Shown here in pieces: positions 9,955-56,058 of a DNA stretch of 64,000 nt. The stretch is taken from the NCBI GenBank assembly GCA_963693025.1, contig OY843749.1, positions 2,957,617 to 3,021,616 on the forward strand, in the 5' to 3' direction. The position numbers and the translations under genes are program-made. Below the pieces are notes generated by a model. The model saw only the letters and a list, made by a program, of their open reading frames with translations, did no database searches and was not told the DNA's origin. Position 1 is the stretch's first letter. The number at the start of each line of letters is the position of its first letter. Source of the stretch: Arenicellales bacterium. GTDB taxonomy: Bacteria; Pseudomonadota; Gammaproteobacteria; Arenicellales; Poriferihabitantaceae.

Positions 9955-10455
9955 ATGGACAGTTTGAGCGTGCAGTTGGCGCCGCTAATCGTGGCGGTGA
10001 TGGCGTTGTGTTTTAGTGTGTACAATTTCGCGCAATCGCGCCACAGAAGGCGGCGAAAGTTGCTCAACGCGATTTATCATCACGCCACCAGGGCGATGGA
10101 AAGTCTCAGCGAACAGCAAAAAGCCAACCGGGGAATTCGCAAAACCATTGAGAGCGATGAATCATACACGCCCTATGTGGTGGCGGTTTCGCCCGCCAAT
10201 GAACTCGTCTATGATCAGGTGATCGAGGCGATGGAATGGTTGAATCCGGCGGACGAAAAAACCATGCTGCGCTATTTTCATAGCCAGTCGAACCTTCACG
10301 CGCTGGGGCAGAGTTTCAACTCCGATTTTGTCAGGAGTTGGAACCGGGAGAGGAAACTAGCAATGTGGAGTATTCTGGAAAAGGAACTGGATGGGACGCT
10401 ACAACACGCCCGCGCGGTGAAATCCCTTTTGCACGCCAAAAGGTCTGCGTGGTGA
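9955..10455 (+). CDS. hypothetical membrane-anchored protein (orphan between dnaB and alr)
   Basis: The ATG at 9955 is preceded by AGGAGGG (9941-9947). The protein is 166 aa with one N-terminal TM helix. The gene looks less GC-rich than its neighbours. No family recognised. Confidence 0.5.
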   Translation: MDSLSVQLAPLIVAVMALCFSVYNFAQSRHRRRRKLLNAIYHHATRAMESLSEQQKANRGIRKTIESDESYTPYVVAVSPANELVYDQVIEAMEWLNPADEKTMLRYFHSQSNLHALGQSFNSDFVRSWNRERKLAMWSILEKELDGTLQHARAVKSLLHAKRSAW

Positions 10456-10603
10456 GTGTGTCAGAGGATGGGGGGAATGCCGGGACCGAACCCGAAAATC
10501 GGGGGAATACCGGGTCCAAAACGCGTATTCACAAAACGCATAGTCATCATCTTGTCTCGTAATAAAGTGAAATCAGACCCAACTATGGACGCATCCGGCA
10601 AAA

Positions 10604-11704
10604 ATGTCAAGTATGAACACCGAGCACTGGCGCGCCAGGGCGCTGATTGACGCGCGCGCGTTGCGCCATAATCTCGCGCTGGTTCGCCAACTGGCGCCCG
10701 GCTGCCGCGTGATGGCGGTCATCAAGTCGAACGCATACGGGCACGGCATGGCGGCGGTCAGCCGGGAAATCGCGGGGCGGGTGGATGCGTTTGCGGTGGC
10801 GACGCTGCAGGAAGGCATCGATTGCCGCAACGCCAATCCGGCGACGCCGGTGACGGTGTTGTCCGGCTTGCAGCAGCCGGCGGCGCTGGACTTGTGCCGG
10901 CGGTATCGGTTGGACCCGGTCTTGCATGCCGACGAACACCTGCGCTGGGTCGAGCAATATCGCGGTGCGCCGCTGGCGCCGTGGCTCAAAATCGATACCG
11001 GTATGAACCGGCTGGGCATTGCGCCGGGGCGGGTCGCCGAGGCGGTCGCCCGCTTGCGTCGCAACAAACGGGTCGGGAGCATCCGCCTGATGTCGCACTT
11101 GGCAAACGCCGACGACACCGAAGACGCGCATTCGGCGGCGCAGTTAAAGCGCTTCAAGCAGGCGAGCGATGCGTATGAAATGGAGCGCAGTCTTGCCAAT
11201 TCCGCCGGGGTGATGCGCTGGCAGAAAACGCATTTTGAGTGGGTCAGACCGGGCATTATGCTGTATGGCGGCTCGCCGTTGCGCGGGTATTTGGGTCCCC
11301 AACTGGGCTTGCAACCGGTCATGCAACTGGAGGCGCGATTGCTGGCAATCAAAACCGTGGCGAAGGGTCAGCCGGTCGGCTACGGCGGCGTTTTTGTCGC
11401 GCCCAAATCATTGCGGCTTGGCGTGGTCGGCTTCGGTTACGGGGACGGCTATCCGCGACTCCTCAGGCCGACTGCCGAGGTGTTGATTGACGGCGAGCGC
11501 GCGCCGGTGGTTGGCAGGGTTGCGATGGACATGACCACGGTGGATTTGTCGCGCTGCGCGGATGCCGCCATCGGCGACAAGGTGGTGCTGTGGGGCAACG
11601 GGCTGAGCGTCGATGAAGTGGCGAATTGGGCTGGCACCATTTCCTATGAATTGCTGTGCAAGGTCAGCGAGCGCGTGCCGCGAGCCACCCTGCAGGCGGA
11701 GTAG
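10604..11704 (+). CDS. alr: alanine racemase
   Basis: The PLP-lysine motif region VIKSNAYGHG is present. Length is 366 aa, and the gene sits downstream of dnaB as in many gammaproteobacteria. Confidence 0.9.
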   Translation: MSSMNTEHWRARALIDARALRHNLALVRQLAPGCRVMAVIKSNAYGHGMAAVSREIAGRVDAFAVATLQEGIDCRNANPATPVTVLSGLQQPAALDLCRRYRLDPVLHADEHLRWVEQYRGAPLAPWLKIDTGMNRLGIAPGRVAEAVARLRRNKRVGSIRLMSHLANADDTEDAHSAAQLKRFKQASDAYEMERSLANSAGVMRWQKTHFEWVRPGIMLYGGSPLRGYLGPQLGLQPVMQLEARLLAIKTVAKGQPVGYGGVFVAPKSLRLGVVGFGYGDGYPRLLRPTAEVLIDGERAPVVGRVAMDMTTVDLSRCADAAIGDKVVLWGNGLSVDEVANWAGTISYELLCKVSERVPRATLQAE

Positions 11705-11705
11705 A

Positions 11706-13067
11706 ATGGCGAAACCTAAAAAAACCTATCACTGCGCCGAGTGCGGCGCCGACAGCCCGAAGTGGGCGGGGCAGTGCGGCGAGTGCGGCGCGTGGAATAC
11801 GCTGGTCGAGCGCGCCGCGGCGCCGGACGTTTCGTCGCCCAGCCGCTTCGCCGGCTTCGCGCCGGCTTCCGTGGCGCAGGCGCTCGACCAAATAGACATC
11901 TCCGAAGTCAACCGGTTGTCCAGCGGCAGCGCCGAATTCGACCGCGTGCTCGGCGGCGGCTTGGTGTGCGGCTCCACCGTGCTGATTGGCGGCGACCCCG
12001 GCATCGGCAAATCGACCCTGTTGCTGCAACACCTGTCCATCATCAGCCGCGACTTGCCGGTGCTGTATGTCAGCGGCGAGGAATCCACCGAGCAACTCGC
12101 GTTGCGCGCCAAGCGGTTGGAACTGAGCAGCGGTCGCCTCAAAGTGATGGCAGAGACGCGCTTGGAAACGCTGCTCGAAACCGCGCACAAGGAAGCGCCG
12201 GCGGTGCTGGTGGCGGACTCGATTCAGACCCTGTATAGCGAGGCGGCCACGCAGGCGCCGGGCAGCGTGTCGCAGGTGCGCGAGTGCGCGGCGCGGCTGG
12301 TGCGCTACGCCAAGCAAAGCGGCTGCACCGTGCTGCTGGTCGGCCACGTGACCAAAGAGGGCGCGCTCGCCGGACCGCGCATTCTGGAGCACATGGTGGA
12401 CAGCGTGCTGTATTTTGAGGGCGACAGCGCGAGTTCGTTTCGCCTCATCCGCGCCTTCAAGAACCGCTTCGGCGCGGTCAACGAAATCGGCGTGTTTGCG
12501 ATGACCGAGCAGGGCTTGAAGGACGTCGCCAACCCCTCGGCGATGTTCGTCAGCCGGCAGGGCGCGTCGCGCCCCGGCAGCGTGGTGCTGGCGACGCAGG
12601 AAGGAACCCGCCCGCTGCTGGTCGAGGTGCAGGCGCTGGTCGCCGACAGCGCGCTCGCCAATCCGCGCCGCCTGTGCGTCGGCCTGGAACACAACCGGCT
12701 CGCCATGCTACTGGCGGTGGCGCACCGCCACGCCGGCATTTCCCTCAACAGTTACGATGTCTTCGCCAACGTGGTCGGCGGCGTGCGTGTGACCGAAACC
12801 GGCGCCGACCTGGCGCTGCTCATCGCGATTTTGTCAAGCGTCAAAAACCGCCCCGCCGGCGCCGACTTGGTGGTCTTCGGCGAAGTCGGATTGTCGGGCG
12901 AACTCCGCCCCGTGCAACGCGGACTGGAGCGCATCCGCGAAGCGCAGAAACTCGGCTTCGAACGCGCGCTGATTCCGAGAGCCAATAAACCAAAAGACCC
13001 GCCCAAAGGCATCGAGTTAATCGCGGCGCGCAAGGTTGAAGATGCGCTCGTCATTCTCGAACAGTAG
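11706..13067 (+). CDS. radA: DNA repair protein RadA/Sms
   Basis: From ATG 11706: a zinc ribbon YHCAECGADSPKWAGQCGECGAWNT, Walker A GGDPGIGKST, the KNRFG motif, and a Lon-like C-terminal domain. The last 6 codons and the stop lie in a repeat end-module. Confidence 0.93.
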   Translation: MAKPKKTYHCAECGADSPKWAGQCGECGAWNTLVERAAAPDVSSPSRFAGFAPASVAQALDQIDISEVNRLSSGSAEFDRVLGGGLVCGSTVLIGGDPGIGKSTLLLQHLSIISRDLPVLYVSGEESTEQLALRAKRLELSSGRLKVMAETRLETLLETAHKEAPAVLVADSIQTLYSEAATQAPGSVSQVRECAARLVRYAKQSGCTVLLVGHVTKEGALAGPRILEHMVDSVLYFEGDSASSFRLIRAFKNRFGAVNEIGVFAMTEQGLKDVANPSAMFVSRQGASRPGSVVLATQEGTRPLLVEVQALVADSALANPRRLCVGLEHNRLAMLLAVAHRHAGISLNSYDVFANVVGGVRVTETGADLALLIAILSSVKNRPAGADLVVFGEVGLSGELRPVQRGLERIREAQKLGFERALIPRANKPKDPPKGIELIAARKVEDALVILEQ

Positions 13068-18618: not shown

Positions 18619-19257
18619 CTAACTGGTCATATTTTGCATGAACTCGACAAGTTCATGGGCTTTGGTTGATGGATTGTCGGTGTGATTGTTGGCAGCGGCT
18701 TTCATCGACTTTTTTGCATGAGTTTTTGCGGTTTCCAACTTGTCGCGCACAATGTCGTATATGTTTTCTTTGCCTTTCCGGTATCCGCGGATATGTTTTT
18801 TCAATTCAGATAATACTTGCTTGCTGGTGTAGGGTGAGGTGGTGTATTTGTAGTGCAGTAGCAAAAAGTACTCAAAAGCCGGCACAGACATGATTGCGTG
18901 AAAAACGTGGCGCGGTTTCATGGCCGTGATTTGTGTCAACGCTTGTTGGTAATCCGTATGGCTATTTTTGTCGAACACACAGAAAACTTGGTCGAAAGGG
19001 AAGCCTGCTTTTTTCTCTTTCTCATAGCGTTCCCTGGCAAAGGCGACGACACTCGTGGGGGAGGGATTACTCTCCCCGGTAATTTCCGCGCCGCTGAGTC
19101 TGAGTTCGTTCTTGAGACCACCAAAATAGTTGGGTTCGGTTTTCTTGCCTTCGCAAACGATTAGAATCTTGGGATAAGTCTTCCGCTTGGCTCTTCGGCG
19201 CGAAAGCCCCCGGGCGCCTCTTGCCTTGCGCTTATGGAACAGGTTGTCCGTCCCCAT
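18619..19257 (-). CDS. RloB-like (Toprim-like) protein, AbiLii-like
   Basis: The sequence KILIVCEGKKTEPNYFGGL...QVFCVFDKNSHTDY is the RloB signature as I recall it. The region is AT-rich. It starts 8 nt after the upstream ATPase gene. Confidence 0.75.
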   Translation of the reverse strand: MGTDNLFHKRKARGARGLSRRRAKRKTYPKILIVCEGKKTEPNYFGGLKNELRLSGAEITGESNPSPTSVVAFARERYEKEKKAGFPFDQVFCVFDKNSHTDYQQALTQITAMKPRHVFHAIMSVPAFEYFLLLHYKYTTSPYTSKQVLSELKKHIRGYRKGKENIYDIVRDKLETAKTHAKKSMKAAANNHTDNPSTKAHELVEFMQNMTS

Positions 19258-19265
19258 TTCTGCGC

Positions 19266-20525
19266 TTACGCTTCTTGGATATAGGGCAGGGCGCCATAAG
19301 CGCCGGAGAGATAGCCCAGCTCCAGGTTTTCCCGCCCCTTGCGCGGGCTAAAATCAGTCAACGGATAAACCGCCGTCTCGCCCTGTTTGTTTTTTTCGCA
19401 GAACCAAATTTGGTCGCGGCGCATAATTTTCTGGTTCAGCATGGCGGTCTCGTGCGTGGTGAATACCAGTTGTGCGTTATGCGGGTTTGTTTTGTCGTTG
19501 TGAAACAGTTCCACCAGGAACTTGACCAGTTTCAAGTGAAGGTGTTCGTGCAATTCATCAACAAAAATCACGCGACCTTTCTTCAAGGCGTCAATCCAAT
19601 AACCGGCGAAAGCAAACATTTTCCGGGTGCCCATTGACTCGTCACCAAAATCAAACGTCACCGGTTTCCCATCGGTGTCCGTATAAACCGTGGCAATTTC
19701 ATAAACGGCTTCACCCTGCATTTCCCTGACAAAAAATTGTTGCACGTGCTCCGGCAAGTCTTGGGGCAACTCATCCCGGCTGAGCGCTTTCTTTTTGACA
19801 TATAAGTCGTCAATATCCAAGTCAGCCGCTTTCAGAAAATTCAGCACTTTTTCCTTTCCATACGGGGATGAACCGGGGTTGTAATTCAATGCCGAACTAC
19901 CGGGGGAAGGTGTATTATTCGTGAACCAATCGTAAAGCGGTTGCAATTGTTGGCTGTTTAACTGAACCGCGGTTGACAGAAACAACGCATTATCGCGGGT
20001 GGATTTTTTCCAGAGGCTCTTCTCACCGCTCAGGAACGCACCGAATTCCCATTCATATTCCCGCTTGTCCGATGACCATGTCCGCTCAAACCACCGTTGC
20101 GCGCGATTGCGCGGGTAAGCGATCAACCACTCTTCCCTGACTTGCTCTTGCGTAATCGAAAAACCATATTGATAGCGCACACCGTCAGCGATAAAGTGCA
20201 TTTCAAATTCACTGGGCGCATTCCGTGTCTTGGAATCCAGCATAAACGGCCGCGCCGGAAGCGGGCCGCCTCGAAGTTGCTCCAAACCCGATTTCACCAC
20301 CACCGACCGCATGGTCTTAAACGCCAGCAAGAGATTGGTCTTGCCCGCGGCATTGGCGCCGTAAATCGCCGCCGAACGCAGCAATCTGATATTGTTCTTG
20401 CCCGTGGCAATCGGGGCGTCAAAGGTGTGCGTGTCGGCCATATCCGTGCTTTTGGAAGCGACCAGACTGAAAGTCTGCCGCTCCTTAATGGACATGAAAT
20501 TGCCCACGCTGAATTCAATCAACAT
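19266..20525 (-). CDS. AAA_15/AAA_21-type (ABC-like) ATPase, AbiLi/OLD-ATPase-like
   Basis: N-terminus MLIEFSVGNFMSIKE; Walker A GANAAGKTNLL; Walker B/D-loop VIFVDELHEHLH; then VFTTHE. A hand count of line 19801-19860 gives 23/60 G+C. Confidence 0.8.
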   Translation of the reverse strand: MLIEFSVGNFMSIKERQTFSLVASKSTDMADTHTFDAPIATGKNNIRLLRSAAIYGANAAGKTNLLLAFKTMRSVVVKSGLEQLRGGPLPARPFMLDSKTRNAPSEFEMHFIADGVRYQYGFSITQEQVREEWLIAYPRNRAQRWFERTWSSDKREYEWEFGAFLSGEKSLWKKSTRDNALFLSTAVQLNSQQLQPLYDWFTNNTPSPGSSALNYNPGSSPYGKEKVLNFLKAADLDIDDLYVKKKALSRDELPQDLPEHVQQFFVREMQGEAVYEIATVYTDTDGKPVTFDFGDESMGTRKMFAFAGYWIDALKKGRVIFVDELHEHLHLKLVKFLVELFHNDKTNPHNAQLVFTTHETAMLNQKIMRRDQIWFCEKNKQGETAVYPLTDFSPRKGRENLELGYLSGAYGALPYIQEA

Positions 20526-20621
20526 TGATGTCTCCTCGTGTTTAGCAGCGAATTATGACAAATTTTGCCGAAATAAACCATAAAAAACTGCTTTTGTCCA
20601 TTTTATTTGGCGCGATACGGC

Positions 20622-21314
20622 ATGAATAATATACGAAAAGCAGTAAAAACATCCCTCAGCGCGCTGTTTTCAGTCCATTTTTGGCGGGTGGTGGGTGGGT
20701 ATTTGGGCATCGGCAAGCGCGCCGGTGAGGGGGAGTTGAATCGGGCGGATTTGTTTGGGGAATTTTTGGATAGTCGAGCGAGTCATGTGGCGCAGACGGC
20801 GTTGTATGGGTATATGAAGACGCGGGCGGGGACGGGGTTTCCGGCGTTGTTTGAGGACTCGGCGATGCTGGCGTCCATCAATATCGCCAAGTGGCAGATT
20901 TGGTTGGCGTGTTTGTCGGATTTGGCGGTGTATGGCGGCGTGCTGATGCGCCTTCGCACGGGCGCGCCGGCGGGGGTGATTCGGGGGATGTTGGAGGGCG
21001 TGGTGGCGCGGGTGTTGGAGGCGGGCGGGGCGCGCGCGGCGGATGAAGCGGGCGAGGATTTTGCCGCCGGTGTGCGCCAAGTCAGGGAGCGCATCGCCGC
21101 TTGCGACTTCGATGCGTTGCGCGATGACGAGTCGGCATTCACCGAGAGCCCGCGGGCAGTGGTGTATTGGTCGCCGGTCGCCGATGAACTGAAAAACCGG
21201 GATGTGGACATCGTGCGCAACTCGGTGCGCTTTCGCTGGCAAGAAGTGCGCCGCGACCTGCGCCGGCGGTTGCGGGCGGAGGCGTTGGTTTCGGGTGTGG
21301 ATGCGGACGGGTAA
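20622..21314 (+). CDS. hypothetical protein (core-like GC)
   Basis: 230 aa from ATG 20622 (the ORF track uses TTG 20607). Hand counts of two lines give 37/60 and 46/60 G+C, i.e. backbone-like. No family recognised. Confidence 0.5.
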   Translation: MNNIRKAVKTSLSALFSVHFWRVVGGYLGIGKRAGEGELNRADLFGEFLDSRASHVAQTALYGYMKTRAGTGFPALFEDSAMLASINIAKWQIWLACLSDLAVYGGVLMRLRTGAPAGVIRGMLEGVVARVLEAGGARAADEAGEDFAAGVRQVRERIAACDFDALRDDESAFTESPRAVVYWSPVADELKNRDVDIVRNSVRFRWQEVRRDLRRRLRAEALVSGVDADG

Positions 21315-21491
21315 GTTCGCCGACCGGCGGCTTGTCAAATGCGGGCGTAGCCGCAAACCACGCCGGCGAAGGGACGCGGTGTGCGGGTCGGGCATGGGTT
21401 GAATTCGAGCGATGATATTGCCGGCGATAGAATGTTTGCAGTATCTTTGGAGTATGGCAAAAGGTGTTAATGTCCTTGCGGCAAACTATTA

Positions 21492-23891
21492 ATGACATTG
21501 CAACGACACGGGTGTTTATTTGTGACAACCGACAATCCGGCGGACGCAAGCCGAGAAATTGAGCTGCTCAATCAACGGCTTTATGCGTTGGAAGTGGAAA
21601 AGTCACGACTGCTTTCCCACAAAGTCCGCTTGGAGTCTGCGGCTTCAAACTCGATGGCCGACTCGTCCACGCTGTCATCAAAAGACAAAGTGGCGCTGTT
21701 CCAAAAATTCTTTGCCGGCAGAAAAGATAGTTACGCTTTTCGGTGGGAAAATAAAACGGGCAGAAGCGGGTATGCGGTCGCTTGTCATAATGAATGGCAG
21801 CCCTGCTTATGCAATAAACCCAAAGTCAAATGCGGCGAATGTGCCAATAAAGCCTATAAAAAATTGGAGCCAAAGGTCATATACGAGCACTTGTCGGGTG
21901 TTCAAACTGTCGGGCTATACCCGCTGATGCGTGATGATACTTGCCGGTTGCTGGCGGTGGATTTTGATAAATCAGATTGGCAACAGGCGGTAAAAGCGTT
22001 TGCGCAAATTTGTGACGGTCAAGACATCCCCTTTGCGATTGAGCGTTCGCGGTCGGGGAATGGTGCGCATGTTTGGATTTTCTTTGAGAGCAAGGCGCCG
22101 GCAAAGGATGCGCGCCGTCTGGGATTTGGGCTGCTGGACCGAACGATGGAAAATTATCCCCACTTGTCGTTTGACTCCTATGACCGTTTATTTCCGAATC
22201 AAGATTCAATGCCAAGCGGTGGTTTTGGAAACTTGATTGCGCTGCCTTTGCAGTATCAACCGCGTCAATACGGCAACTCCGTATTTGTTGACCGCGAATT
22301 GGTTGCTTACGCTGACCAATGGCGGTTTCTTGGCGGACTTAAACGACTTGCCCCCGACAGGCTGCATAAACTCCTGCACCGGTTCGAAGAAGAAACGCCG
22401 GAGCCGTCCGCCAAGCCCTGGGAGCAGGGTATTCCCATTGCCCGCACAAAAATCGAGAATTGCCCCGCCAAACTGAAAATCGTGCTGGCAAATCAAGTTT
22501 TTATCCCCACCGCCACGCTGCCGTCTAACTTGTTGGCTCGCCTGAAGCGTCTTGCCAGTTTTGCCAATCCCGTGTTTTTCAAAACACAAGCGATGCGTTT
22601 CAGCACTCGCGGCATCCCGCGCTATATCAGCCTGGCGCACATTGAACAGGAATACCTTGTTGTTCCCCGCGGATGTCTGGATGATGTTCGGCAATTACTC
22701 ACCGGGCAGAATATCTCGCTTGAGTTCGATGATAAGCGGGAACAGGGAAAGCGCCTGAAAAGCATTCGGTTTTTGGGCGAGTTGCGCGGCGACCAGAAAG
22801 ATGCGGTTGACAAGTTAGTCACGCACGATGCGGGTATTCTTCACGCGCCAACGGCATTTGGAAAAACAGTGACTGCGATTGGGGTGCTCGCCCAACGCAA
22901 AACAAACACGCTGATACTGACGCATACCCGGCAGTTGCTCGACCAGTGGAAGGAGCGCTTAACCGCTTTTCTTGCAGGCGCGGACATTGGTGTTATCGGC
23001 GGGGGCAAACGCACGCCGACCGGCTGTGTTGATATTGCCACCTACCAAAGCCTTTTGAATCGAAAAGACAATAGTATTGCCCCGTTAGTGTTGGACTATG
23101 GTCAAGTCATTATCGACGAATGCCATCATCTGTCGGCACCAAATTATGACCGCTTGCTGTCGGATGTCCGGGCGCGCTATGTTCTCGGGCTAACGGCCAC
23201 ACCCGAACGGCAAGATGGTCATCATCCAATTATCTTTATGCAGGCGGGTCCCATCCGCCACCGGGTTAAAATCGACAAGCAGACCCATTTTGAACAGCAA
23301 GTCATCATAAGGCTCGTTGCGGACAAGCCGCCGGAACCGCTGGCTTCGGAAGAAAGGCCGCATATTGCGGATGTTTACCGATGGCTGATGGAATCAAGCA
23401 AGCGGGACGAGTTAATCGTGCAAGACATCGCGGCACAAATCGAGATGGGCGGCAACCCGCTGGTGTTGACGGAGCGCAGAGAACATGCCGGTTTGTTGAG
23501 TCAAGCGCTGTCTGAGCGGGGGTATGAAACCATTGTTTTGCGAGGCGCCATGCGCGCCAAAGAGCGCACACAAGCCATGGAGAAAGTCCAAACCGCGCAA
23601 GCGTTGATTGCCACGGGAAAGTATATTGGCGAAGGCTTCGACCTCCCCAGGCTGGATACGTTATTCCTGGCGCTGCCTATTTCATGGAAGGGCTCGCTTG
23701 TGCACTATGCGGGGCGTATTCACCGCGTCGCCGAGCGCAAAAAGAAAGTGACTATTTACGACTATGTGGACAGCGCGCTACCCATGTTGCAGCGCATGTT
23801 TCAACGCCGCCGCAAAGGCTATGAGGCGATGGGGTATCGTCTGGTTAGCGGTGATGATGCGCCGGTGATTCAATCCCGGCTGGAGGTTTGA
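21492..23891 (+). CDS. archaeo-eukaryotic primase (AEP/PrimPol)-like domain fused to SF2 DEAH-box helicase
   Basis: N-terminal coiled coil, then a Cys-rich cluster CHNEWQPCLCNKPKVKCGEC. AEP motifs LLAVDFDK (DxD) and SGNGAHVWIFF (sGxGxH). Helicase Walker A APTAFGKT, IIDECHH, LGLTATP and YAGRIHR. Line 22201-22260 has 27/60 G+C. Confidence 0.75.
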   Translation: MTLQRHGCLFVTTDNPADASREIELLNQRLYALEVEKSRLLSHKVRLESAASNSMADSSTLSSKDKVALFQKFFAGRKDSYAFRWENKTGRSGYAVACHNEWQPCLCNKPKVKCGECANKAYKKLEPKVIYEHLSGVQTVGLYPLMRDDTCRLLAVDFDKSDWQQAVKAFAQICDGQDIPFAIERSRSGNGAHVWIFFESKAPAKDARRLGFGLLDRTMENYPHLSFDSYDRLFPNQDSMPSGGFGNLIALPLQYQPRQYGNSVFVDRELVAYADQWRFLGGLKRLAPDRLHKLLHRFEEETPEPSAKPWEQGIPIARTKIENCPAKLKIVLANQVFIPTATLPSNLLARLKRLASFANPVFFKTQAMRFSTRGIPRYISLAHIEQEYLVVPRGCLDDVRQLLTGQNISLEFDDKREQGKRLKSIRFLGELRGDQKDAVDKLVTHDAGILHAPTAFGKTVTAIGVLAQRKTNTLILTHTRQLLDQWKERLTAFLAGADIGVIGGGKRTPTGCVDIATYQSLLNRKDNSIAPLVLDYGQVIIDECHHLSAPNYDRLLSDVRARYVLGLTATPERQDGHHPIIFMQAGPIRHRVKIDKQTHFEQQVIIRLVADKPPEPLASEERPHIADVYRWLMESSKRDELIVQDIAAQIEMGGNPLVLTERREHAGLLSQALSERGYETIVLRGAMRAKERTQAMEKVQTAQALIATGKYIGEGFDLPRLDTLFLALPISWKGSLVHYAGRIHRVAERKKKVTIYDYVDSALPMLQRMFQRRRKGYEAMGYRLVSGDDAPVIQSRLEV

Positions 23892-23892
23892 T

Positions 23893-25092
23893 TTGATTCA
23901 AGGCAACGCAGGCTTTAACTTCACCCCCCAAGAACACGCCGCCCGCCTCGCCAAAACCCGCCGGGCGATGGTGGCGCGTGGGGTGGAGGTTTTGTTGGTT
24001 AGCGACCCGTCCAATATGGCGTGGCTGACCGGTTATGACGGCTGGTCGTTTTATGTTCACCAGTGCGTGGTCGTGCCGCCGGACGGGGCGCCGTTGTGGT
24101 ATGGGCGCGGGATGGATGCCGCCGGGGCGAGGAGGACCGTGGATGCGCGGGTGATGCCGCACGACCACATCATCGGTTATGCCGACGAGTATGTGCAGAA
24201 TCCGGCGCAGCATCCGATGGAGCCGCTGAGCGCCTTGTTGCGCGAGCGCGGCTGGGCGGGGGCGGTGATTGGCGTGGAGATGGATAACTATTATTTCAGC
24301 GCGGCGGCTTATCGCGCGTTGACCGAGCAGTTGCCGGACGCCGAGTGGGTTGACGCCACTTCGTTGGTGAACTGGCAACGCGCGGTCAAGTCCGCCGCCG
24401 AAATTGACTATATGAAGCGCGCCGCCGCCATCGTCGAGCGGATGCACCGGCGCGCGTTTGAGTTGATTGAGCCGGGTCTGCGGAAAAACGAGTTGGTGGC
24501 GGAGATTTACCGCTGCGCGATCGAGGGCGCGGGCGGGCATGGCGGCGACTATCCTGCCATCGTCCCGCTGGTGCCGACCGGACGCGACGCCGGCGCGCCG
24601 CATCTGACCTGGGACGACCGCCCCATCCCCGCCAACTCGGGCACATTTTTTGAAATCGCCGGCGTGTATAAGCGCTATCACTGCCCGCTGTCCAGAACGA
24701 TTTATCTCGGCGCGCCGCCGGATGAATTCTTGCGCGCCGAGGCCGCCCTGCAGGAAGGCATCGCCGCCGGGCTGGCGGTCGCCAAGCCGGGCAACCGGTG
24801 CCGCGACATTGCGCTGGCGTTGTTCGACGCGCTCGCGCGGCACGGGTTTGAGAAGGACAACCGTTGCGGCTACGCGATTGGCTTGAGTTACCCGCCCGAC
24901 TGGGGCGAGCGCACCATGAGTTTCCGCGCCGAAGACGAGACCGTCCTCGCGCCCGGCATGACCTTTCATTTCATGCCGGGGCTATGGCTGGACGACTGGG
25001 GCATTGAGATTACTGAAAGCCTGCTGATTACCGAGTCGGGCTGCGAGACGCTGGCGGATTATCCGCGCGAACTGCTGGTCAAGCGCGGTTGA
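23893..25092 (+). CDS. doeA: M24-family hydrolase, ectoine hydrolase DoeA-like
   Basis: 399 aa from TTG 23893, with GGAGG 5 nt upstream. VSDPSNMAWLTGYDGWSFYVHQ matches my memory of DoeA/creatinase-like N-domains. It is followed by a DoeB-like gene. Confidence 0.6.
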   Translation: MIQGNAGFNFTPQEHAARLAKTRRAMVARGVEVLLVSDPSNMAWLTGYDGWSFYVHQCVVVPPDGAPLWYGRGMDAAGARRTVDARVMPHDHIIGYADEYVQNPAQHPMEPLSALLRERGWAGAVIGVEMDNYYFSAAAYRALTEQLPDAEWVDATSLVNWQRAVKSAAEIDYMKRAAAIVERMHRRAFELIEPGLRKNELVAEIYRCAIEGAGGHGGDYPAIVPLVPTGRDAGAPHLTWDDRPIPANSGTFFEIAGVYKRYHCPLSRTIYLGAPPDEFLRAEAALQEGIAAGLAVAKPGNRCRDIALALFDALARHGFEKDNRCGYAIGLSYPPDWGERTMSFRAEDETVLAPGMTFHFMPGLWLDDWGIEITESLLITESGCETLADYPRELLVKRG

Positions 25093-49391: not shown

Positions 49392-49484
49392 TAGTGCTAA
49401 AATTGCCGTTTGGCGATGCCAATTTTAGTGGTTTATCGAGCCGCCAAAAGCGTTATAGTGCTATCTCTAATATCGGATGACATA

Positions 49485-52319
49485 ATGAACACCATTCACA
49501 GTTTGTTAAGGAATAAGGTCGAGACATGGGTAAGACTGGAGAAAGAAAATAACCAATCTCTTGTCAAAAATATGCTTCAACACATTGACAAAGTCGGAAA
49601 GCTTCGCCCACCGCAGAAAGAAGCCATAGAAACCCACCTTTGGATTAAATTCGTGGGCAATAATAAAAAACTCTCTGATGTGGTAAGGAACGGGCTTTTA
49701 TATGACGATAGCGTTGCCATGACGTATGGAAATTATCTCACTTTCAAAAAAGGCGATTATGTTGCCCAATTCTTGAATCAATTCTTTCAAGATAACAGGT
49801 TAAAGAACCTGCACAAGGAACTCTTAAATGATCCAAATGGAAAAGAAATCAGTTGGAATTCCACGCTTGATGACTTGCTCCACAATTTCGAGTACCCAAA
49901 TTACCTCTACAGTCTTCCAATGGGGGCAGGCAAAACATTTTTAATGGCTTGTTTCATTTACCTTGATCTTTATTTTGCTACTTTATTCAAAGAAGATAAA
50001 AGATTTGCTCACAACTTCGTTGTTTTCGCGCCACACTCTGCAAAAACCGCAATCCTTCCATCCCTCCGAACAATCAAGGATTTCAACCCTGAATGGATAC
50101 TGCCAAAGAATGATGCCGATAAACTGAAACAAGTTATTTCTATTGAGATACTTGATAGTTTAAGTTCCAAAAGAAAAGACAAGTTGCATGGAAATAACCC
50201 AAACCTTGAAAAAGTAAATCGAATGAAACAGACAAAAGATTTTGGGCTTGTCTTTATAACCAACGCTGAGAAAGTAGTACTTGAAAAGTATGATGATAGG
50301 GATAAAGCGCTGGTAGATAGCCTTGAGAGAGGACAAGCAGATGCGCTTGATGCGCGCTCGATCGATGAAATAAAGAAATCGAATCAACTCAGAGAAGCAT
50401 TATCGCAGATACCAAATCTAACGGTAATACTTGATGAAGTGCACCATTCTTACGGAAGCACGGGAAACGGAGAGAAAAAACTGAGGCAGGCGGTCAATAT
50501 ACTAAACCAGCATAAACACATTAATACCGTTATCGGATTATCCGGTACACCCTACGTTAAAAGTGAAATTAAAGTTGCCGACAACAGTATACGATTAAGT
50601 CAGATACAAGACATAGTTTATAACTACCCCTTAAATATTGGCATTGGCAAGTTTCTAAAGAAACCTGTCATTAAAAAAGCAAGCGTAAGAGAAAAAGCAT
50701 TTATCCAACAGGCTCTTTCAGACTTTTTTAAGGATTATGACAAAAAGTATAAGGATGGAACAAAAAGCAAAATAGCTTTTTACTGTCCTTCGATTAAAAA
50801 ATTGAATGATGATATTCTTCCTGTCGTTCAGGAATGGTACCGCAAAAATCGCTCTAAAAAAGAAGAAGAAATATTTAGATATTATTCGAAAGTAAAAAAG
50901 GATAATAAGCAGTATGCGTTACCAAGAGATAGCCTTGCTATTTTCAACAATCTCGACAGACCATACTCAAAAAAACGGGTAATTTTATTGGTTGCAGTCG
51001 GCACGGAAGGTTGGGATTGCAGAAGTCTGACAGCGGTTGTATTGCCAAGACAAGACACGCCTAAGAATTTTGTATTGCAGACAGCTTGCAGATGTTTGAG
51101 AGAGGTTGATGATTCGGCGCACGAAAGTGCGCTTATTTATTTATCAGAAGAAAACCATGAAACTCTCGACAAAGAATTGAAGGAAAATTATCAGCTTTCA
51201 ATATCCGATTTCTCTGAAAGGAAAGAACAAACGATACAAGTTCAAGTTCGCAAACCAAAACTGGGAAAACTCAAATACAAGCAAATTGACACTCGTTACA
51301 AGATTGTCAAAAAAATGGCGCCCGACATAAAGAAAGAATTGACAAAGTTAAGATTTTCAAAATTGAAAAGCAAGTATAAGTATGACAAGAGCATCGTCTC
51401 CGGCACGATCGGTAAAACGGGGATAACAGGTGAGGTAGCAGCAGATCACATCAAGGAAAAAAGCAACGGCATGTTTTCTTTTGCAGAATTTATTTACAGT
51501 CTGTCTGCCAATACATATGCAAAGTTTAGCGAACACGAACTGGAGAGTAAGTATAAAGATGACCTTTCACAAATACATAAACAAATTTCTAGAAATTTGG
51601 AATGGATAAATTTAAATCCTTATATCGGATTAACTGATATTGTAAAGTTTATCGCGGCCAGTTTTATGGACAAGGTGGAATACACCAAAGATATTATAAA
51701 AAACGAAACTGAGATTGAACTTCTGGAGTGGGCAGGCACTGACAATGAGATGAGTTTCTTTTCTCCAACCGGATCAACTTATAAGTTTATGCCGAAAATT
51801 AGTATGGCGAATTATGGGGGAAATAGAGGCTACGGGAAACACCTAGAATATATGGAAGACGACTTTTTTGGAGAGAGCGGTATCGACCCACAGGACATCA
51901 GTTTTAATTACATTCCTTACAAAATGGACAGCGAATTTGAGCAAAATACTCTTGCGGAAATGTTGAAATTGGCTGAACTCAAGGGGCTTGAAATTTATTT
52001 TAACGGGTATAAAGATGAAAAACTGCAGTCATTTTGGATACAAACACCGCGAGGAAAATATACTCCGGATTTTTTGATATTGAAAAGAAAGGGGGGTAAA
52101 TACAGGAAAAACAGAAAGGCGATTATTGACAAGGTGTTTATTGTCGAGACAAAGGGGAAACCTTATTACAACGATGAATTTAAAGCGAAAGAGAAGTTTG
52201 TTAATGACGAGTTTTTGAGGCATAATGAGCACTTCGAATATCGTTGTTTCCTCGATGACGGAAAAAACGATTTCACAAAGCATCTTGGTAGATTTAAGAA
52301 ACTTTTGGAAAATTTCTAA
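49485..52319 (+). CDS. Type III restriction enzyme Res-like SF2 helicase-nuclease (island 2)
   Basis: Walker A SLPMGAGKTF, DEVH box (VILDEVHHSYG) and LSGTPY. The C-terminal PD-(D/E)xK-like motif is YTPDFLILKRK...VFIVETKGK. Line 50581-50640 has 18/60 G+C. ATG 49485 is preferred over TTG 49410. Confidence 0.8.
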   Translation: MNTIHSLLRNKVETWVRLEKENNQSLVKNMLQHIDKVGKLRPPQKEAIETHLWIKFVGNNKKLSDVVRNGLLYDDSVAMTYGNYLTFKKGDYVAQFLNQFFQDNRLKNLHKELLNDPNGKEISWNSTLDDLLHNFEYPNYLYSLPMGAGKTFLMACFIYLDLYFATLFKEDKRFAHNFVVFAPHSAKTAILPSLRTIKDFNPEWILPKNDADKLKQVISIEILDSLSSKRKDKLHGNNPNLEKVNRMKQTKDFGLVFITNAEKVVLEKYDDRDKALVDSLERGQADALDARSIDEIKKSNQLREALSQIPNLTVILDEVHHSYGSTGNGEKKLRQAVNILNQHKHINTVIGLSGTPYVKSEIKVADNSIRLSQIQDIVYNYPLNIGIGKFLKKPVIKKASVREKAFIQQALSDFFKDYDKKYKDGTKSKIAFYCPSIKKLNDDILPVVQEWYRKNRSKKEEEIFRYYSKVKKDNKQYALPRDSLAIFNNLDRPYSKKRVILLVAVGTEGWDCRSLTAVVLPRQDTPKNFVLQTACRCLREVDDSAHESALIYLSEENHETLDKELKENYQLSISDFSERKEQTIQVQVRKPKLGKLKYKQIDTRYKIVKKMAPDIKKELTKLRFSKLKSKYKYDKSIVSGTIGKTGITGEVAADHIKEKSNGMFSFAEFIYSLSANTYAKFSEHELESKYKDDLSQIHKQISRNLEWINLNPYIGLTDIVKFIAASFMDKVEYTKDIIKNETEIELLEWAGTDNEMSFFSPTGSTYKFMPKISMANYGGNRGYGKHLEYMEDDFFGESGIDPQDISFNYIPYKMDSEFEQNTLAEMLKLAELKGLEIYFNGYKDEKLQSFWIQTPRGKYTPDFLILKRKGGKYRKNRKAIIDKVFIVETKGKPYYNDEFKAKEKFVNDEFLRHNEHFEYRCFLDDGKNDFTKHLGRFKKLLENF

Positions 52320-52321
52320 CG

Positions 52322-54142
52322 ATGAAAAAATCGAAACCATACAACCTATCGCCGGCAAGAGGGCAAGCGCTTCTTAACTTTGAGGGTAGAAGGTTCCCTG
52401 ACAAACTAGATGTGTTTGAAACTGAAGTCATTGAAACAGTCCGAAAGAAACAGTCGAAAGCGCAGTCCTTGTTAAGCGAGGAAAGTGATTTAAATGCTGA
52501 TTTCAGGAATTTACTCATTCAAGGTGATTGTTTATCTGCTTGCGCCTATTTGAAGTCAAGGAGCATTAAGGTCGATTTAGTTTATATTGATCCACCGTTT
52601 GCAAGCGGAGCAAATTATGCCAAGAAGATTTACCTGCGTAATGGGGGCAAATCTCAGATCGAAGCGGACGACAATACTATTGGTGAAGAGGTGATGTATG
52701 GAGACATCTGGCAAAAAGAAGATTACCTTAATTGGTTGTATGAAAGATTGCTCGTAATTAAAGATGTTATGAATGAAACAGCAAGCATTTATGTGCATTT
52801 GGACTGGCATATTGGGCATTATGTAAAGATATTGATGGATGAAATATTTGGGGAGGAGAATTTTAGGAACGAGATTATTTGGCATTATCCGGATAACTTC
52901 CAAGGCAATGTAAACCGGTATCCTATTAACCATAATGTAATTTTTTATTATGTGAAAACAGCAGACAATTTTGTTTATAAAAGATTGCAAGAGAAATTGG
53001 ATAAAAAAGTAAAACGACCAACAAGAATATGGGATAAAACTACACAAAAACTAGAAATTGACCGCGATCATAACGGTGCTCCGGTATACAAAGAGTATAG
53101 TGAGAAATTTATTGATGATGTTTGGCGGATTGCACAAAGACCGGTTGTAGTGCCGGGTAATAAAGAACATACTGGCTATACAACTCAAAAACCTGAAGCT
53201 CTTTTAGAGCGTATCATCAAAGCATCGTCAGACGAAGGGATGATAGTTGCTGATTTCTTTTCCGGTTCTGGAACAACAACCAAAGTAACCAGCGATCTAA
53301 ACCGTAAATTCGTAGCTTGCGATATAGGCATCAATGCCCTGCAAACTACAAGAGATCGCCTTGTCAAGGCTGGGGCAAATTTTGATATATTGAAAATTAA
53401 TGATGGTTTACGCCTTTTCAGAAACCCAGCACAAACAACCGCAAAAATATTCAGCATCATTGATGGTTTCAGGTCCAGAACAGATTTGGATTTAAATGAC
53501 TTCTGGGATGGTGGTATCGCTCAGGCAAAAGGCTCCTACACCCCTGTAAAATTTTCAGGCATTCACGACAAACTCACCAAAGAACTCTTGGATGTATATC
53601 TGGAAGAAATCTATAAACTCGAAGACACCGACAGCGCCAGTGAAGTGGTTATTATTTATGCCCATAAAGATGTGGATATTGACCAAGCATCGTTGGATAA
53701 ACGACTCAAGAGAATTGCTAAAACAGAGATACAGGTAAAACTTGTTTCTTTGGATAGCCTGCTAGGTGAGAAAAAAGACGCTCTTTTCACGCCTGACAAC
53801 GCAGATATTAAAATAACCAAGAAAGGAAATAAATACAAAGTAGAAATCAAGAAATTTTACAGCCCTTACCTGAAAAATAAAATTGACGAGTACAACGCAA
53901 AGAAAGTGAAAAGTGGCACGATAGTAAAAATCGGCAATGCTGGATTAGAAATGATTGAAGCGGTGCAATTTGATACTACTTGTCGGAAAGTTTGGAAAAG
54001 CAACAGTGATTTAGAAGATAAAGCAGGCGTTAAAGACAGAGTCAAAGCCGTTTATACACTCGCCACGAGCAACTTTAGAATGAAAATTAGAAACATAGCA
54101 GGTGATGAAATAATAATTGATAGCAAGGAAATAAGCGGCTAG
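52322..54142 (+). CDS. beta-class amino (N6-adenine/N4-cytosine) DNA methyltransferase, Type III Mod-like (island 2)
   Basis: Motif IV VYIDPPFASGANY precedes motif [24 protein letters not shown] is present. It starts 2 nt after the res stop. Confidence 0.85.
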   Translation: MKKSKPYNLSPARGQALLNFEGRRFPDKLDVFETEVIETVRKKQSKAQSLLSEESDLNADFRNLLIQGDCLSACAYLKSRSIKVDLVYIDPPFASGANYAKKIYLRNGGKSQIEADDNTIGEEVMYGDIWQKEDYLNWLYERLLVIKDVMNETASIYVHLDWHIGHYVKILMDEIFGEENFRNEIIWHYPDNFQGNVNRYPINHNVIFYYVKTADNFVYKRLQEKLDKKVKRPTRIWDKTTQKLEIDRDHNGAPVYKEYSEKFIDDVWRIAQRPVVVPGNKEHTGYTTQKPEALLERIIKASSDEGMIVADFFSGSGTTTKVTSDLNRKFVACDIGINALQTTRDRLVKAGANFDILKINDGLRLFRNPAQTTAKIFSIIDGFRSRTDLDLNDFWDGGIAQAKGSYTPVKFSGIHDKLTKELLDVYLEEIYKLEDTDSASEVVIIYAHKDVDIDQASLDKRLKRIAKTEIQVKLVSLDSLLGEKKDALFTPDNADIKITKKGNKYKVEIKKFYSPYLKNKIDEYNAKKVKSGTIVKIGNAGLEMIEAVQFDTTCRKVWKSNSDLEDKAGVKDRVKAVYTLATSNFRMKIRNIAGDEIIIDSKEISG

Positions 54143-54196
54143 AAAACCATTTCCGCGGTTGAGAAGAGCAGTAGGTCACCTTAAGTCGAGCGACAC

Positions 54197-55342
54197 ATGA
54201 CAAAAAATTTTTTCAACGAAAGCACGAAACAGTCACGGGTCAAGTCTGCCATCGTTGCCAAATATTTTACAGCTTGGGCAAGGATAATTATTGGGGCCCA
54301 AAACAAGAATCCAGCGCAAGAGGATAAAAGAATTGCTTACATAGATTTGTTTGCCGGGCCGGGTCGATATTCAGATGGCACAACTTCAACGCCTTTGCGG
54401 ATTTTGGGAGTGGCCATTAAGAACGAAGATATTCGTCAAAGACTCGTAACATTTTTCAATGATAAAGATCAAGAGCAAATGAATTCGTTAGAGAAATCTA
54501 TCGGTCAATTATCGGATGTAGATTCACTCAAACATCCTCCAGAAATTTCAAATCAGGAAGTTGATGAAACTATCGCTAATACGTTTGAAAATAAAAAACT
54601 CGTTCCCACACTCTTTTTCTTCGACCCATGGGGTTATAAAGGGGTTACTTTGCGCTTGCTTAAGTCTGTACTGAAAGATTGGGGTTGTGATTGCATTTTT
54701 TTCTTTAACTATAATCGTATCAATATGGGGCTGAATAATCCTATGGTCAAAGAACATATGAATATGCTTTTTGGTGCGGAGCGTGCAGACAAATTAAGGA
54801 GGAAATTAAGTAGACTTTCCACGACTAAACGGGAATCGACTATCCTCGATGAATTGTGCGGTGCGCTACACGAATCTGGACCAGAATATGTATTACCGTT
54901 TTGCTTCAAGAATGACCGGGGGACAAGAGTGAGTCATTACCTAATATTTGTGAGTAAGAATTTCAAAGGTTATGAAGTTATGAAGGAAATTATGGCCAAA
55001 GAATCTTCGACAATTGTACAGGGTGTTGCCAGCTTCGAGTATAATCCAGCGGCGACACAAGTGCGGCAGGTGCTATTCTTTCCGTCACGCCCCCATGAAG
55101 CGTTGCGTCCTCTTGATGATTTGGGTGATATGCTTCTCAAAGAATTTTCTGGAGAAACAATCACGATGCGACAAATCTACAAACGACACAGCGTTAATCG
55201 CCCTTACATCAGTGCAAACTATAAGGAAGTACTCCAACAATTGGATCAACAACAAAAAATTACAGCACCTAAACACAAAAAAGGTACATTCGGAGATGAT
55301 GTTCCCGTAACATTTCCTCGATTAAAAGGAAATGAGCAATGA
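54197..55342 (+). CDS. tcmP: three-Cys-motif partner protein TcmP-like
   Basis: The N-terminus [23 protein letters not shown]...[11 protein letters not shown] and the later [10 protein letters not shown] match my memory of the TcmP family. It is followed, with an ATGA overlap, by a Gp37/Gp68-type gene, the defining context of that family. Confidence 0.65.
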
Positions 55343-56058
55343 GCGGAACATCGTCAATCGAATGGACCGAGACTACTTGGAATCCAGTCACAGGCTGTAC
55401 CAAAATCAGCGCCGGATGCAAGCATTGCTATGCTCATCGTATGGCTTTTCGGCTTCAGGCTATGGGTAATAAACGCTACCAGAATGGGTTCAAAATTACC
55501 CTCCACGACGACCTGATTGATGCGCCGAGAAGGTGGCGTTCATCACGTATAATTTTTGTCAACTCCATGAGCGATTTGTTTCATAAGGACGTGCCAACCG
55601 AATTCATTCAGCGCGTATTCCAAACGATGAACGATTGCCCGCAGCATACCTTTCAAGTATTAACCAAACGCGGCGGTCGCTTGAAAACTCTGGCGAACAA
55701 GCTCAACTGGACACCGAATATCTGGATGGGTGTCAGTGTAGAGGACGAACGTGTTTATCACCGCATCCATGACTTGCTTGAAGTGCCCGCTCATGTCCGT
55801 TTTCTTTCCTGCGAACCGCTAATTGGGCCAACGGAAAATCTGCCGCTTGATGGCATCCACTGGGTGATTGTTGGCGGTGAATCGGGACCTAAAGCAAGAC
55901 CGATGGAAAAAACTTGGGTTTGGTCAATCAGAAAACAATGTCGTGCTGTTGATGCCGCTTTCTTTTTCAAGCAATGGGGTGGTGTTCAAAAGCATCGGCA
56001 CGGGCGTCTGCTTAACAATCGGACATACGATGAAATGCCGGAAACTCAACCGGCATAG
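55339..56058 (+). CDS. phage Gp37/Gp68-family protein (DUF5131), three-Cys motif
   Basis: [26 protein letters not shown] (C-x6-C-x2-C) and the later [10 protein letters not shown]...FFFKQWGG are as I remember for PF07505 proteins. Confidence 0.7.

Follow-up and report, generated by a model that had tools for sequence, protein, structure and literature searches.

This locus raises the question of what a large primase-helicase fusion, encoded by a gene without obvious partners, is doing in its host, and whether it is a replication protein, part of a conflict system, or something else. The DNA analyzed, referred to here as the window, is a 64,000-nucleotide stretch from an Arenicellales bacterium, and the gene in question is an uninterrupted open reading frame (ORF) at window positions 21492-23891 on the + strand, which runs from an ATG start to a TGA stop and encodes 799 amino acids. 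An initial annotation made from the letters alone read the product as a fusion of an archaeo-eukaryotic primase (AEP) with a Res/XPB-like superfamily 2 (SF2) helicase, took it to be foreign, asked whether it is of conflict-system type rather than a replicon primase, and proposed profile searches and a comparison of homologue neighborhoods. To judge from its sequence, the protein is a member of a known and very widespread family, that of the E. coli O157:H7 insertion-sequence excision enhancer, IEE (hereafter EcIEE). Its gene is intact and horizontally acquired, and constitutes a single-gene insertion of about 2.5 kb into the first codons of doeA.

The domain reading was borne out by profile searches, in which AEP, ResIII and Helicase_C were all matched. 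All of the motifs that had been quoted are present in the ORF (VDFD at residues 156-159, SGNGAHVW at 188-195, AFGKT at 455-459, DECH at 542-545, TATP at 568-571 and GRIHR at 741-745), although only four of the "five elements" announced with them had been listed. The AEP (primase-polymerase) catalytic domain spans residues 65-293 (21684-22370, + strand) and matches the Pfam family AEP-TOTE (PF22548) with an E-value of 5.9e-95 and 317.7 bits against a cut-off of 27, covering positions 1-229 of a 230-position model; Foldseek also matched this domain to the structures 7NQD and 7NQE. PF22548 is the family behind the name "TOTE conflict system" AEP domain, which the initial annotation had mentioned, and NCBI gives that name to a homologue with 60% identity. 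The catalytic set is intact as claimed, with D157 and D159 of motif A, H193 of motif B, D231 of motif C, and Y143 at the sugar-selectivity position, and these residues are conserved in 97-99 of 100 family members. The SF2 motor with its two RecA-like domains occupies residues 430-780 (22779-23831, + strand) and was recognized by ResIII (3e-24, residues 430-573), DEAD and Helicase_C (2.5e-9, residues 649-746), with XPB structures, including XPB II, as the best matches. Its Walker A lysine (K458), DECH box, TATP motif and motif VI arginines (R742 and R745) are all in place; K458, D542, E543, H545 and R742 are kept in 100 of 100 family members.

Three further elements surround these two catalytic halves. 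A conserved middle domain lies ahead of the motor at about residues 310-425 (22419-22766, + strand), as seen in an alignment of 22 homologues. We infer that it is the counterpart of the N-terminal domain of UvsW/XPB-type helicases; phage helicase matches begin at query residues 311-328, and an HHpred match of EcIEE to T4 UvsW begins at residue 321 (bioRxiv 10.1101/2023.06.07.543989). The Cys-rich cluster noticed earlier (21783-21842, + strand) contains C98, C105, C107, C114 and C117. Four of these, in the arrangement C98-X8-C107-X6-C114-X2-C117 (CX8CX6CX2C), are invariant in the 22 homologues, near-invariant across the family (97-98 of 100 members) and conserved in EcIEE. This Cys4 cluster, N-terminal to the AEP core, is a probable zinc-binding knuckle, in a region (residues 95-121) where the AlphaFold2 (AF2) model has low confidence, with a pLDDT below 50. 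A word search of the EcIEE paper PMC9943667 returned zero occurrences of "cys", and zinc is named there only for other PrimPols. Finally, the AF2 model (built with 22 homologues, mean pLDDT 72) places a long, leucine-zipper-like helix at residues 16-51 (21537-21644, + strand) with leucines at the heptad d positions, and this segment aligns with the equivalent segment of EcIEE. It is a probable oligomerization element. The coiled coil of the initial annotation thus stands as a helix with heptad leucines, and a coiled coil is consistent with that pattern, which was read from the AF2 helix and the leucine spacing rather than from a dedicated coiled-coil predictor.

EcIEE from strain EDL933 gave a BLASTP alignment of 651 bits with the window protein, in which query residues 30-793 pair with subject residues 10-786 at an identity of 45%. 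The alignment is collinear over 96% of the window protein, and the two proteins have similar lengths (786 and 799 aa). The copy used, WP_000233452.1, was found by tblastn of plasmid records and is annotated as "DEAD/DEAH box helicase family protein"; it was taken to be IEE because it has 786 aa, comes from strain EDL933, and matches the numbering D142/D144/Y128/K451 in PMC9943667. In that paper the E. coli O157:H7 protein is described as 786 aa with a Z1568-like AEP domain and a C-terminal SF2 helicase-like domain, and as cited there and in PMC5862659 the Z1568-like family has been named since the 2005 AEP classification. The window gene is accordingly listed here as an IEE-family gene (Z1568-like AEP plus SF2 ATPase) on the strength of the ORF, the Pfam matches and the EcIEE alignment. 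The functional residues published for EcIEE correspond to window residues as follows: D142/D144 to D157/D159, H178 to H193, D216 to D231, Y128 to Y143, K451 to K458, and R735 to R742. Of 100 family members drawn from many phyla, 97-100 keep these residues.

A search of 5.8 billion proteins gave at least 8000 matches, counted as clusters at 90% identity, with a top identity of 81%, and the best 120 of these matches were all about 790 aa long and shared one architecture. The window protein belongs to a subclade of marine gammaproteobacterial and Acinetobacter sequences (55-81% identity), while the EcIEE subclade contains Pantoea and betaproteobacterial sequences (62-81% identity). The value of about 45% between the window protein and EcIEE is typical between family members. 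The protein is no uncharacterized oddity: genetics and biochemistry have been published for its E. coli homologue. A Pfam model and an NCBI name already exist for the family, which is large and spread over many phyla, with a single member studied. The same architecture goes under two unconnected labels, "TOTE" and "IEE": genes of about 790 aa named "TOTE ... AEP domain-containing protein" or "DEAD/DEAH box helicase" are IEE homologues, and they should not be read as replication primases, nor as parts of TOTE operons where TPR, OB and TBP are missing.

The likeness to EcIEE (ECs1305; Kusumoto 2011, Calvo 2023) extends over the N-terminal helix, the Cys4 cluster, AEP motifs A, B and C, the steric-gate tyrosine, the middle domain and the SF2 motifs, and both are lone genes in horizontally acquired DNA. 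The two differ in their carriers. EcIEE sits in a large integrative element (SpLE1-like, with integrase, AlpA and IS66), whereas the window copy is a bare single-gene insertion.

The foreign origin that had been proposed from base composition is supported by several measures. The count of 27 G+C in the 60 letters at 22201-22260 is exact, and the gene as a whole has a G+C of 0.527 and a third-codon-position G+C (GC3) of 0.579, against a GC3 of 0.80-0.84 in the flanking host genes (symporter, doeA, doeB, hflX, BCCT and uvrA). In a 100-bp profile, G+C declines at 21400, from 0.69 to 0.40, and climbs back at about 23900. The gene order in the window is Na/solute symporter, DUF4212, RloB/AbiLii, AAA_21/AbiLi, orf235, the IEE homologue and doeA, followed by doeB, hfq, hflX, BCCT and uvrA. 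Empty sites were found in two relatives (L168 and L169), where doeA comes immediately after orf235; the two genes are 26 nt apart in one case and overlap by 11 nt in the other. This adjacency of orf235 and doeA identifies the IEE gene as the insertion.

Comparison of the window with these two genomes also defined the junctions. At the left junction, the sequence ATGGGTTGAATTC (21394-21406, + strand) is a relic of the old doeA start that aligns with the ATG and first doeA codons of both relatives. At the right junction, GGCTTTAACTTC (23911-23922, + strand) encodes the doeA codons G-F-N-F and forms an imperfect direct repeat of the left relic, matching at 9 of 12 positions, which is suggestive of an imperfect target duplication of about 12 nt. 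The inserted unit begins with an AT-rich leader of about 40% G+C (21401-21491, + strand), presumed to hold the promoter and 5′ untranslated region; a simple sigma-70 scan found no consensus promoter in it. Nothing convincing in the way of flanking repeats, terminal inverted repeats or att sites was detected beyond the short imperfect duplication. Similarity among close homologues stops about 10 nt after the stop codon and within about 50 nt before the start, and no conserved non-coding flanks were found among them. The sequence TGATTTGATTCA around the IEE stop is common to the window gene and the 81%-identical homologue in locus L164. As the initial annotation had stated, no integrase, Rep or iteron array was found near the gene, and no tRNA.

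The insertion has changed the start of its downstream neighbor. The gene doeA, encoding ectoine hydrolase (23893-25092, + strand; NCBIfam TIGR02993, 644 bits), has lost its ATG and now starts at a TTG located 1 nt past the IEE stop codon, with a GGAGG at 23881-23885 lying within the last IEE codons. No terminator-like site was seen between the two genes. From this arrangement doeA would be co-transcribed and translationally coupled with the inserted IEE gene. The filled site and its empty counterparts form a clean natural case of a bare single-gene acquisition that has captured the translation start of doeA.

The gene to the left, orf235 (20607-21314, + strand), is a conserved host gene with a GC3 of 0.74 and 1190 homologues. 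It is widespread in gamma- and betaproteobacteria without a Pfam, NCBIfam or PADLOC family, is labeled "esterase" by some sources, and lies just upstream of doeA/doeB in three genomes. It was considered as a hidden partner of the IEE gene and rejected, being a widespread host gene that borders doeA where the site is empty and does not accompany other homologues; by tblastn, orf235 adjoins no other IEE homologue except the near-identical one in locus L163. A minus-strand ORF at 20670-21395 had no family match and is not called as a gene in L163, and is a probable shadow ORF. In L163 itself (10001-11746) the IEE homologue, 98% identical to the window protein, is called with a length of only 581 aa, yet coding sequence for the N-terminal part persists in the DNA upstream. 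A frameshift, either an assembly error or a recent pseudogenization, could have split off the N-terminal residues, about 218 in number.

The initial annotation had stressed that the gene is solitary and had asked which partners recur beside its homologues. A sample of 101 loci was drawn from more than 590 that matched, comprising 80 genomic loci, 19 full-length IMG/VR loci and further contexts, and covering Gamma-, Alpha- and Betaproteobacteria, Desulfobacterota, Bacillota, Chloroflexota, Bacteroidota, Acidobacteriota, Planctomycetota and others. Neighbors were predicted as heuristic ORFs (greedy longest) within ±10 kb, which gave 1601 proteins that were clustered by all-against-all BLASTP, and the -1 and +1 neighbors were scanned with Pfam, the 25 most frequent families being listed. 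No cluster recurs in more than 9 of the 101 loci at this distance and with this clustering, so that no recurrent partner was found. Family members are almost always solitary, among toxin-antitoxin (TA) and defense cargo. The claim of solitude is therefore true of this locus; it is not special to it, being the norm of the family across the 101 loci.

Among the families listed, the upstream neighbors included Fic (5), HTH_3 (5), AbiEii (4), RhuM (3) and DUF3307 (3), with single occurrences of McrBC, HipA, AbiEi, HigB, ParE, the EcoEI R subunit and Schlafen/AlbA_2. Those listed downstream included tyrosine integrases (4), SNF2 (3), HTH regulators, TPR (2 of 85) and Cas_GSU0053 (1 of 85). The commonest clusters within ±10 kb were integrases, Fic, HigB-HTH, RhuM, AbiEii, relaxase, HsdM, HipA and a SWIM-SNF2 helicase. 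At one locus, the IEE homologue overlaps the end of an operon with a type I/IIG restriction-modification (R-M) system and McrBC. A SWIM-zinc-finger SNF2 helicase of 612-1115 aa was observed near the homologue in six of the 101 loci (L011, L043, L044, L048, L051 and L081), and directly downstream of it in three of those six. This helicase, TniQ, Fic and HigBA were each considered as partners and set aside as too rare.

What is known of EcIEE suggests a function. IS (insertion sequence) excision requires IEE and an active transposase, according to Kusumoto 2011 and bioRxiv 10.1101/2023.06.07.543989; the latter source reports action on the IS3, IS1 and IS30 families, which transpose by copy-out-paste-in, and not on IS5, IS26 or IS621. 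In vitro, the EcIEE AEP domain is an Mn2+-dependent, error-prone DNA polymerase that prefers dNTPs and tolerates primer/template dislocation, and the full-length protein joins 3′ overhangs that share at least 4 nt of homology, fills gaps and shows strand displacement (PMC9943667). Its SF2 domain is a DNA-dependent ATPase without unwinding activity that is required for processive synthesis, strand displacement and end synapsis (PMC9943667). With catalytic residues and architecture both retained, the same chemistry may be expected of the window protein. The interpretation that we favor, and hold to be reasonably probable, is that this is an IEE-family enzyme with EcIEE-like polymerase, end-joining and ATPase activities that acts on transposition intermediates and reached its present position through a single-gene transfer of about 2.5 kb. 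Both the biochemical activities and a role in IS excision in this host are extrapolated from the E. coli protein.

If the extrapolation is correct, the protein would work as follows. Duplex or branched DNA would be bound by the SF2/UvsW-like module, whose ATPase would hold or remodel the DNA with no unwinding. The substrates would be the branched or nicked intermediates produced by copy-out-paste-in transposases of the IS3, IS1 and IS30 type, or broken DNA. The AEP domain, acting as an Mn2+-dependent, dNTP-preferring and error-prone polymerase able to realign primer and template, would extend a 3′ end and re-align it across a microhomology of at least 4 nt, thereby joining 3′ overhangs. More speculatively, the N-terminal helix might pair two protomers for end synapsis. 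Intermediates would in this manner be diverted by strand switching or end joining, with the result that the IS is deleted from the donor or the break is repaired, and the protein would in effect police the genome on its own, with transposable elements and broken DNA as its targets.

Several points weigh against this interpretation. EcIEE, the sole characterized member, shares only 45% identity with the window protein, falls in another subclade, and ranks 52nd of 99 by identity. No transposase or integrase was found among the profiled window ORFs (about 16-33 kb and 36-64 kb, with 11.5-16 kb covered through the gene calls of L163). The family often occurs among defense and TA genes, here an AbiL pair, which fits an immune role as well as it fits the policing of IS elements. 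Even in E. coli the physiological role of IEE is debated, as stated in bioRxiv 10.1101/2023.06.07.543989. The locus is well suited for asking whether, beyond E. coli, enzymes of the IEE type serve to police IS elements, to repair breaks or to restrict invaders.

The main alternative is that the protein is a stand-alone immune (conflict) effector directed against phages and plasmids, akin to the TOTE AEP effectors and CRISPR Prim-Pols, in which the SF2 module would sense foreign replication or recombination intermediates, the AEP domain would poison or mis-extend them, and IS excision would be a side effect. We regard this as unlikely, even though it survives better than the other alternatives. 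It is favored by the names given to the domain by Pfam and NCBI, and by a match of 8.9e-93 to the PADLOC profile "PrimPol, CAS-associated". The patchy distribution and horizontal mobility of the gene also agree with it, as does the presence of AbiEii, McrBC, type I R-M, Schlafen/AlbA_2, HipA, HigB, Fic and RhuM beside homologues. On the other hand, we found no published anti-phage phenotype for the AEP-SF2 architecture, and the E. coli member has a positive and different phenotype.

The immediate surroundings of the gene also speak for an immune role. An AbiL-type pair on the - strand (18619-20525) lies on the other side of orf235 and consists of AAA_21/AbiLi (19266-20525) and RloB/AbiLii (18619-19257), identified by Pfam and by PADLOC (AbiLi 2.4e-100, AbiLii 9.6e-26), with a GC3 of 0.58-0.62. 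The relative L168 carries the AbiL pair at the same place without an IEE gene, and L169 has RadC, UvrD-PDDEXK and a type III R-M system upstream of orf235 instead of AbiL. The AbiL pair and the IEE gene are therefore independent acquisitions at a variable spot, and these sets mark the spot upstream of orf235 as a defense hot spot.

Comparison with the known conflict systems tells against the same alternative. TOTE stands for TPR, OB, TBP and Effector, an expansion taken second-hand from bioRxiv 10.1101/2025.09.15.676423. The window protein shares with these systems the AEP effector domain (PF22548, full length, 318 bits), but the TPR and OB/CSD core has no counterpart beside the window gene or, as a rule, beside the 101 homologues. 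No TPR protein was found among the neighbors within about 10 kb in the window or in the near-identical L163; of the two TPR neighbors noted above, the one identified lies 332 bp downstream on the same strand in L004. No OB/CSD protein was found among the window neighbors, and a phmmer search with CspA gave one match in the 1601 ORFs of the 101 loci. No TBP family appeared among the Pfam hits of the window neighbors or the neighbor families listed, no dedicated TBP profile search having been made. The window gene has the TOTE effector-type domain and not the system, and membership of a TOTE system is not supported.

The CRISPR-associated Prim-Pol (CAPP) of Marinitoga sp. 1137 (PDB 7NQD, 7NQE and 7P9J) provides the closest solved AEP structure (phmmer 1e-10), and Foldseek aligned the AEP domain with the CAPP Prim-Pol structures 7NQD and 7NQE at a TM of 0.72-0.75 and a root-mean-square deviation of about 4 Å. 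However, CAPP has no SF2 fusion, and the NCBIfam CAPP equivalog NF040561 scored 87.7 bits, below its cut-off of 200. No cas genes or CRISPR array are present at the window gene; no interspaced CRISPR repeat array was found in the 64-kb window, and no cas families were found among the neighbors.

A second alternative, somewhat less probable than the first, is a host-beneficial role in repair or damage tolerance that is independent of transposons, such as microhomology-mediated end joining, gap filling or repriming at stalled forks. The joining of 3′ overhangs, the gap filling and the strand displacement reported for EcIEE in vitro would all suit such a role, as would the inferred co-transcription or translational coupling with a housekeeping gene. 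So would the resemblance between the SF2 half and the helicases XPB, RadD and UvsW, which act in repair. In both sequence and fold, the C-terminal half (the middle domain and two RecA-like domains) is like the XPB and T4 UvsW SF2 translocases, with matches to archaeal XPB II (6.6e-24), TFIIH XPB and, in the whole-chain Foldseek search, UvsW (2OCA). It differs from them in being fused to an AEP polymerase and in having no Bax1-like nuclease or TFIIH partners, and the EcIEE module hydrolyzes ATP without unwinding. Standing against a repair role are the patchy, transfer-driven distribution of the gene, its foreign codon usage, its absence from close relatives, the lack of a Ku or ligase partner nearby, and the dependence of the in vivo IEE phenotype on an active transposase in the EcIEE reports cited above.

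Two broader ideas are compatible with the same observations. IEE-family proteins may in general be self-contained, single-gene immune effectors of defense islands, directed against foreign DNA intermediates of every kind, from the replication and recombination forks of phages or plasmids to transposition intermediates, with IS excision in E. coli as just one read-out; we think this about as doubtful as the repair role. More speculatively still, the end-joining chemistry of the protein could itself help a bare IEE gene to insert at microhomologies. If true, this would explain single-gene insertions that lack an integrase, such as the present one, with its imperfect duplication of about 12 nt of the doeA start.

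The least probable alternative, a replicative primase-helicase orphaned from a plasmid, prophage or integrative element, is very improbable. In its favor, fusions of an AEP with a helicase are typical of the replication proteins that mobile elements encode (PMC5862659), and full-length homologues occur in plasmid records (98 in 72,556) and on 19 IMG/VR contigs. Against it, the helicase is of the SF2 XPB/UvsW type and not SF3, SF4 or MCM, and EcIEE does not unwind DNA. A full-length copy is absent from all 50,697 isolated phage genomes (the helicase half alone matches, at about 24% identity). The copies on plasmids occupy accessory or transposon regions, next to HigBA, TniQ, or a resolvase with a Tn3 remnant, and separate from repA, and the one in the window is a solitary insertion of 2.5 kb that has neither Rep nor ori nor integrase. 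The protein resembles pRN1 ORF904 and the PrimPol-PV1 supergroup in combining an AEP and an NTPase in a single polypeptide on mobile DNA (PMC5862659), but those proteins use SF3, D5, MCM or RepA-type helicases together with PriCT/wHTH and sit in replication modules, whereas the window protein has an SF2 motor, no origin-binding module and no replication context. The initial annotation had doubted a replicon primase, adding that homologues embedded in replication modules would make this an orphaned replication gene. Across the 101 loci, the plasmids and the phages the homologues are not so embedded, and since replication contexts are absent, this doubt is upheld.

One group of homologues stood apart in the neighborhood sample. 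In loci L086-L096 from IMG/VR (target genes at about 9.8-12.9 kb), the protein is a variant of 964-966 aa with a C-terminal extension of about 170 aa, and in every case a DUF3307 protein and a protein of about 230 aa with a weak sigma70_r4 match come before it. From the several tyrosine integrases, the MobA/VirD2 relaxase and the DUF3408 protein that are also present, the carriers would seem to be mobilizable integrative elements and not phages.

Elsewhere in the window, two other islands of low G+C were observed. The first (49410-56058, + strand; 37-39% G+C) carries a type III-like R-M pair, composed of a 969-aa protein with ResIII and RE_endonuc and a 606-aa N6_N4 methyltransferase, and continues with a GMT-wHTH protein (381 aa) and a DUF5131 protein (239 aa). 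The second (60305-63996, - strand; 41-46% G+C) reaches the end of the window and carries an N6_N4 DNA methyltransferase of 598 aa with an upstream 632-aa ORF for which Pfam gave no match; this could be a second type III-like R-M system, truncated by the window edge. Near the other end, at 1624-1708, the 17-nt unit GAATGACGGGTACTTGG is repeated in tandem in 4.6 copies with 93% matches, overlapping a putative ORF of the six-frame list (1226-1879, - strand).

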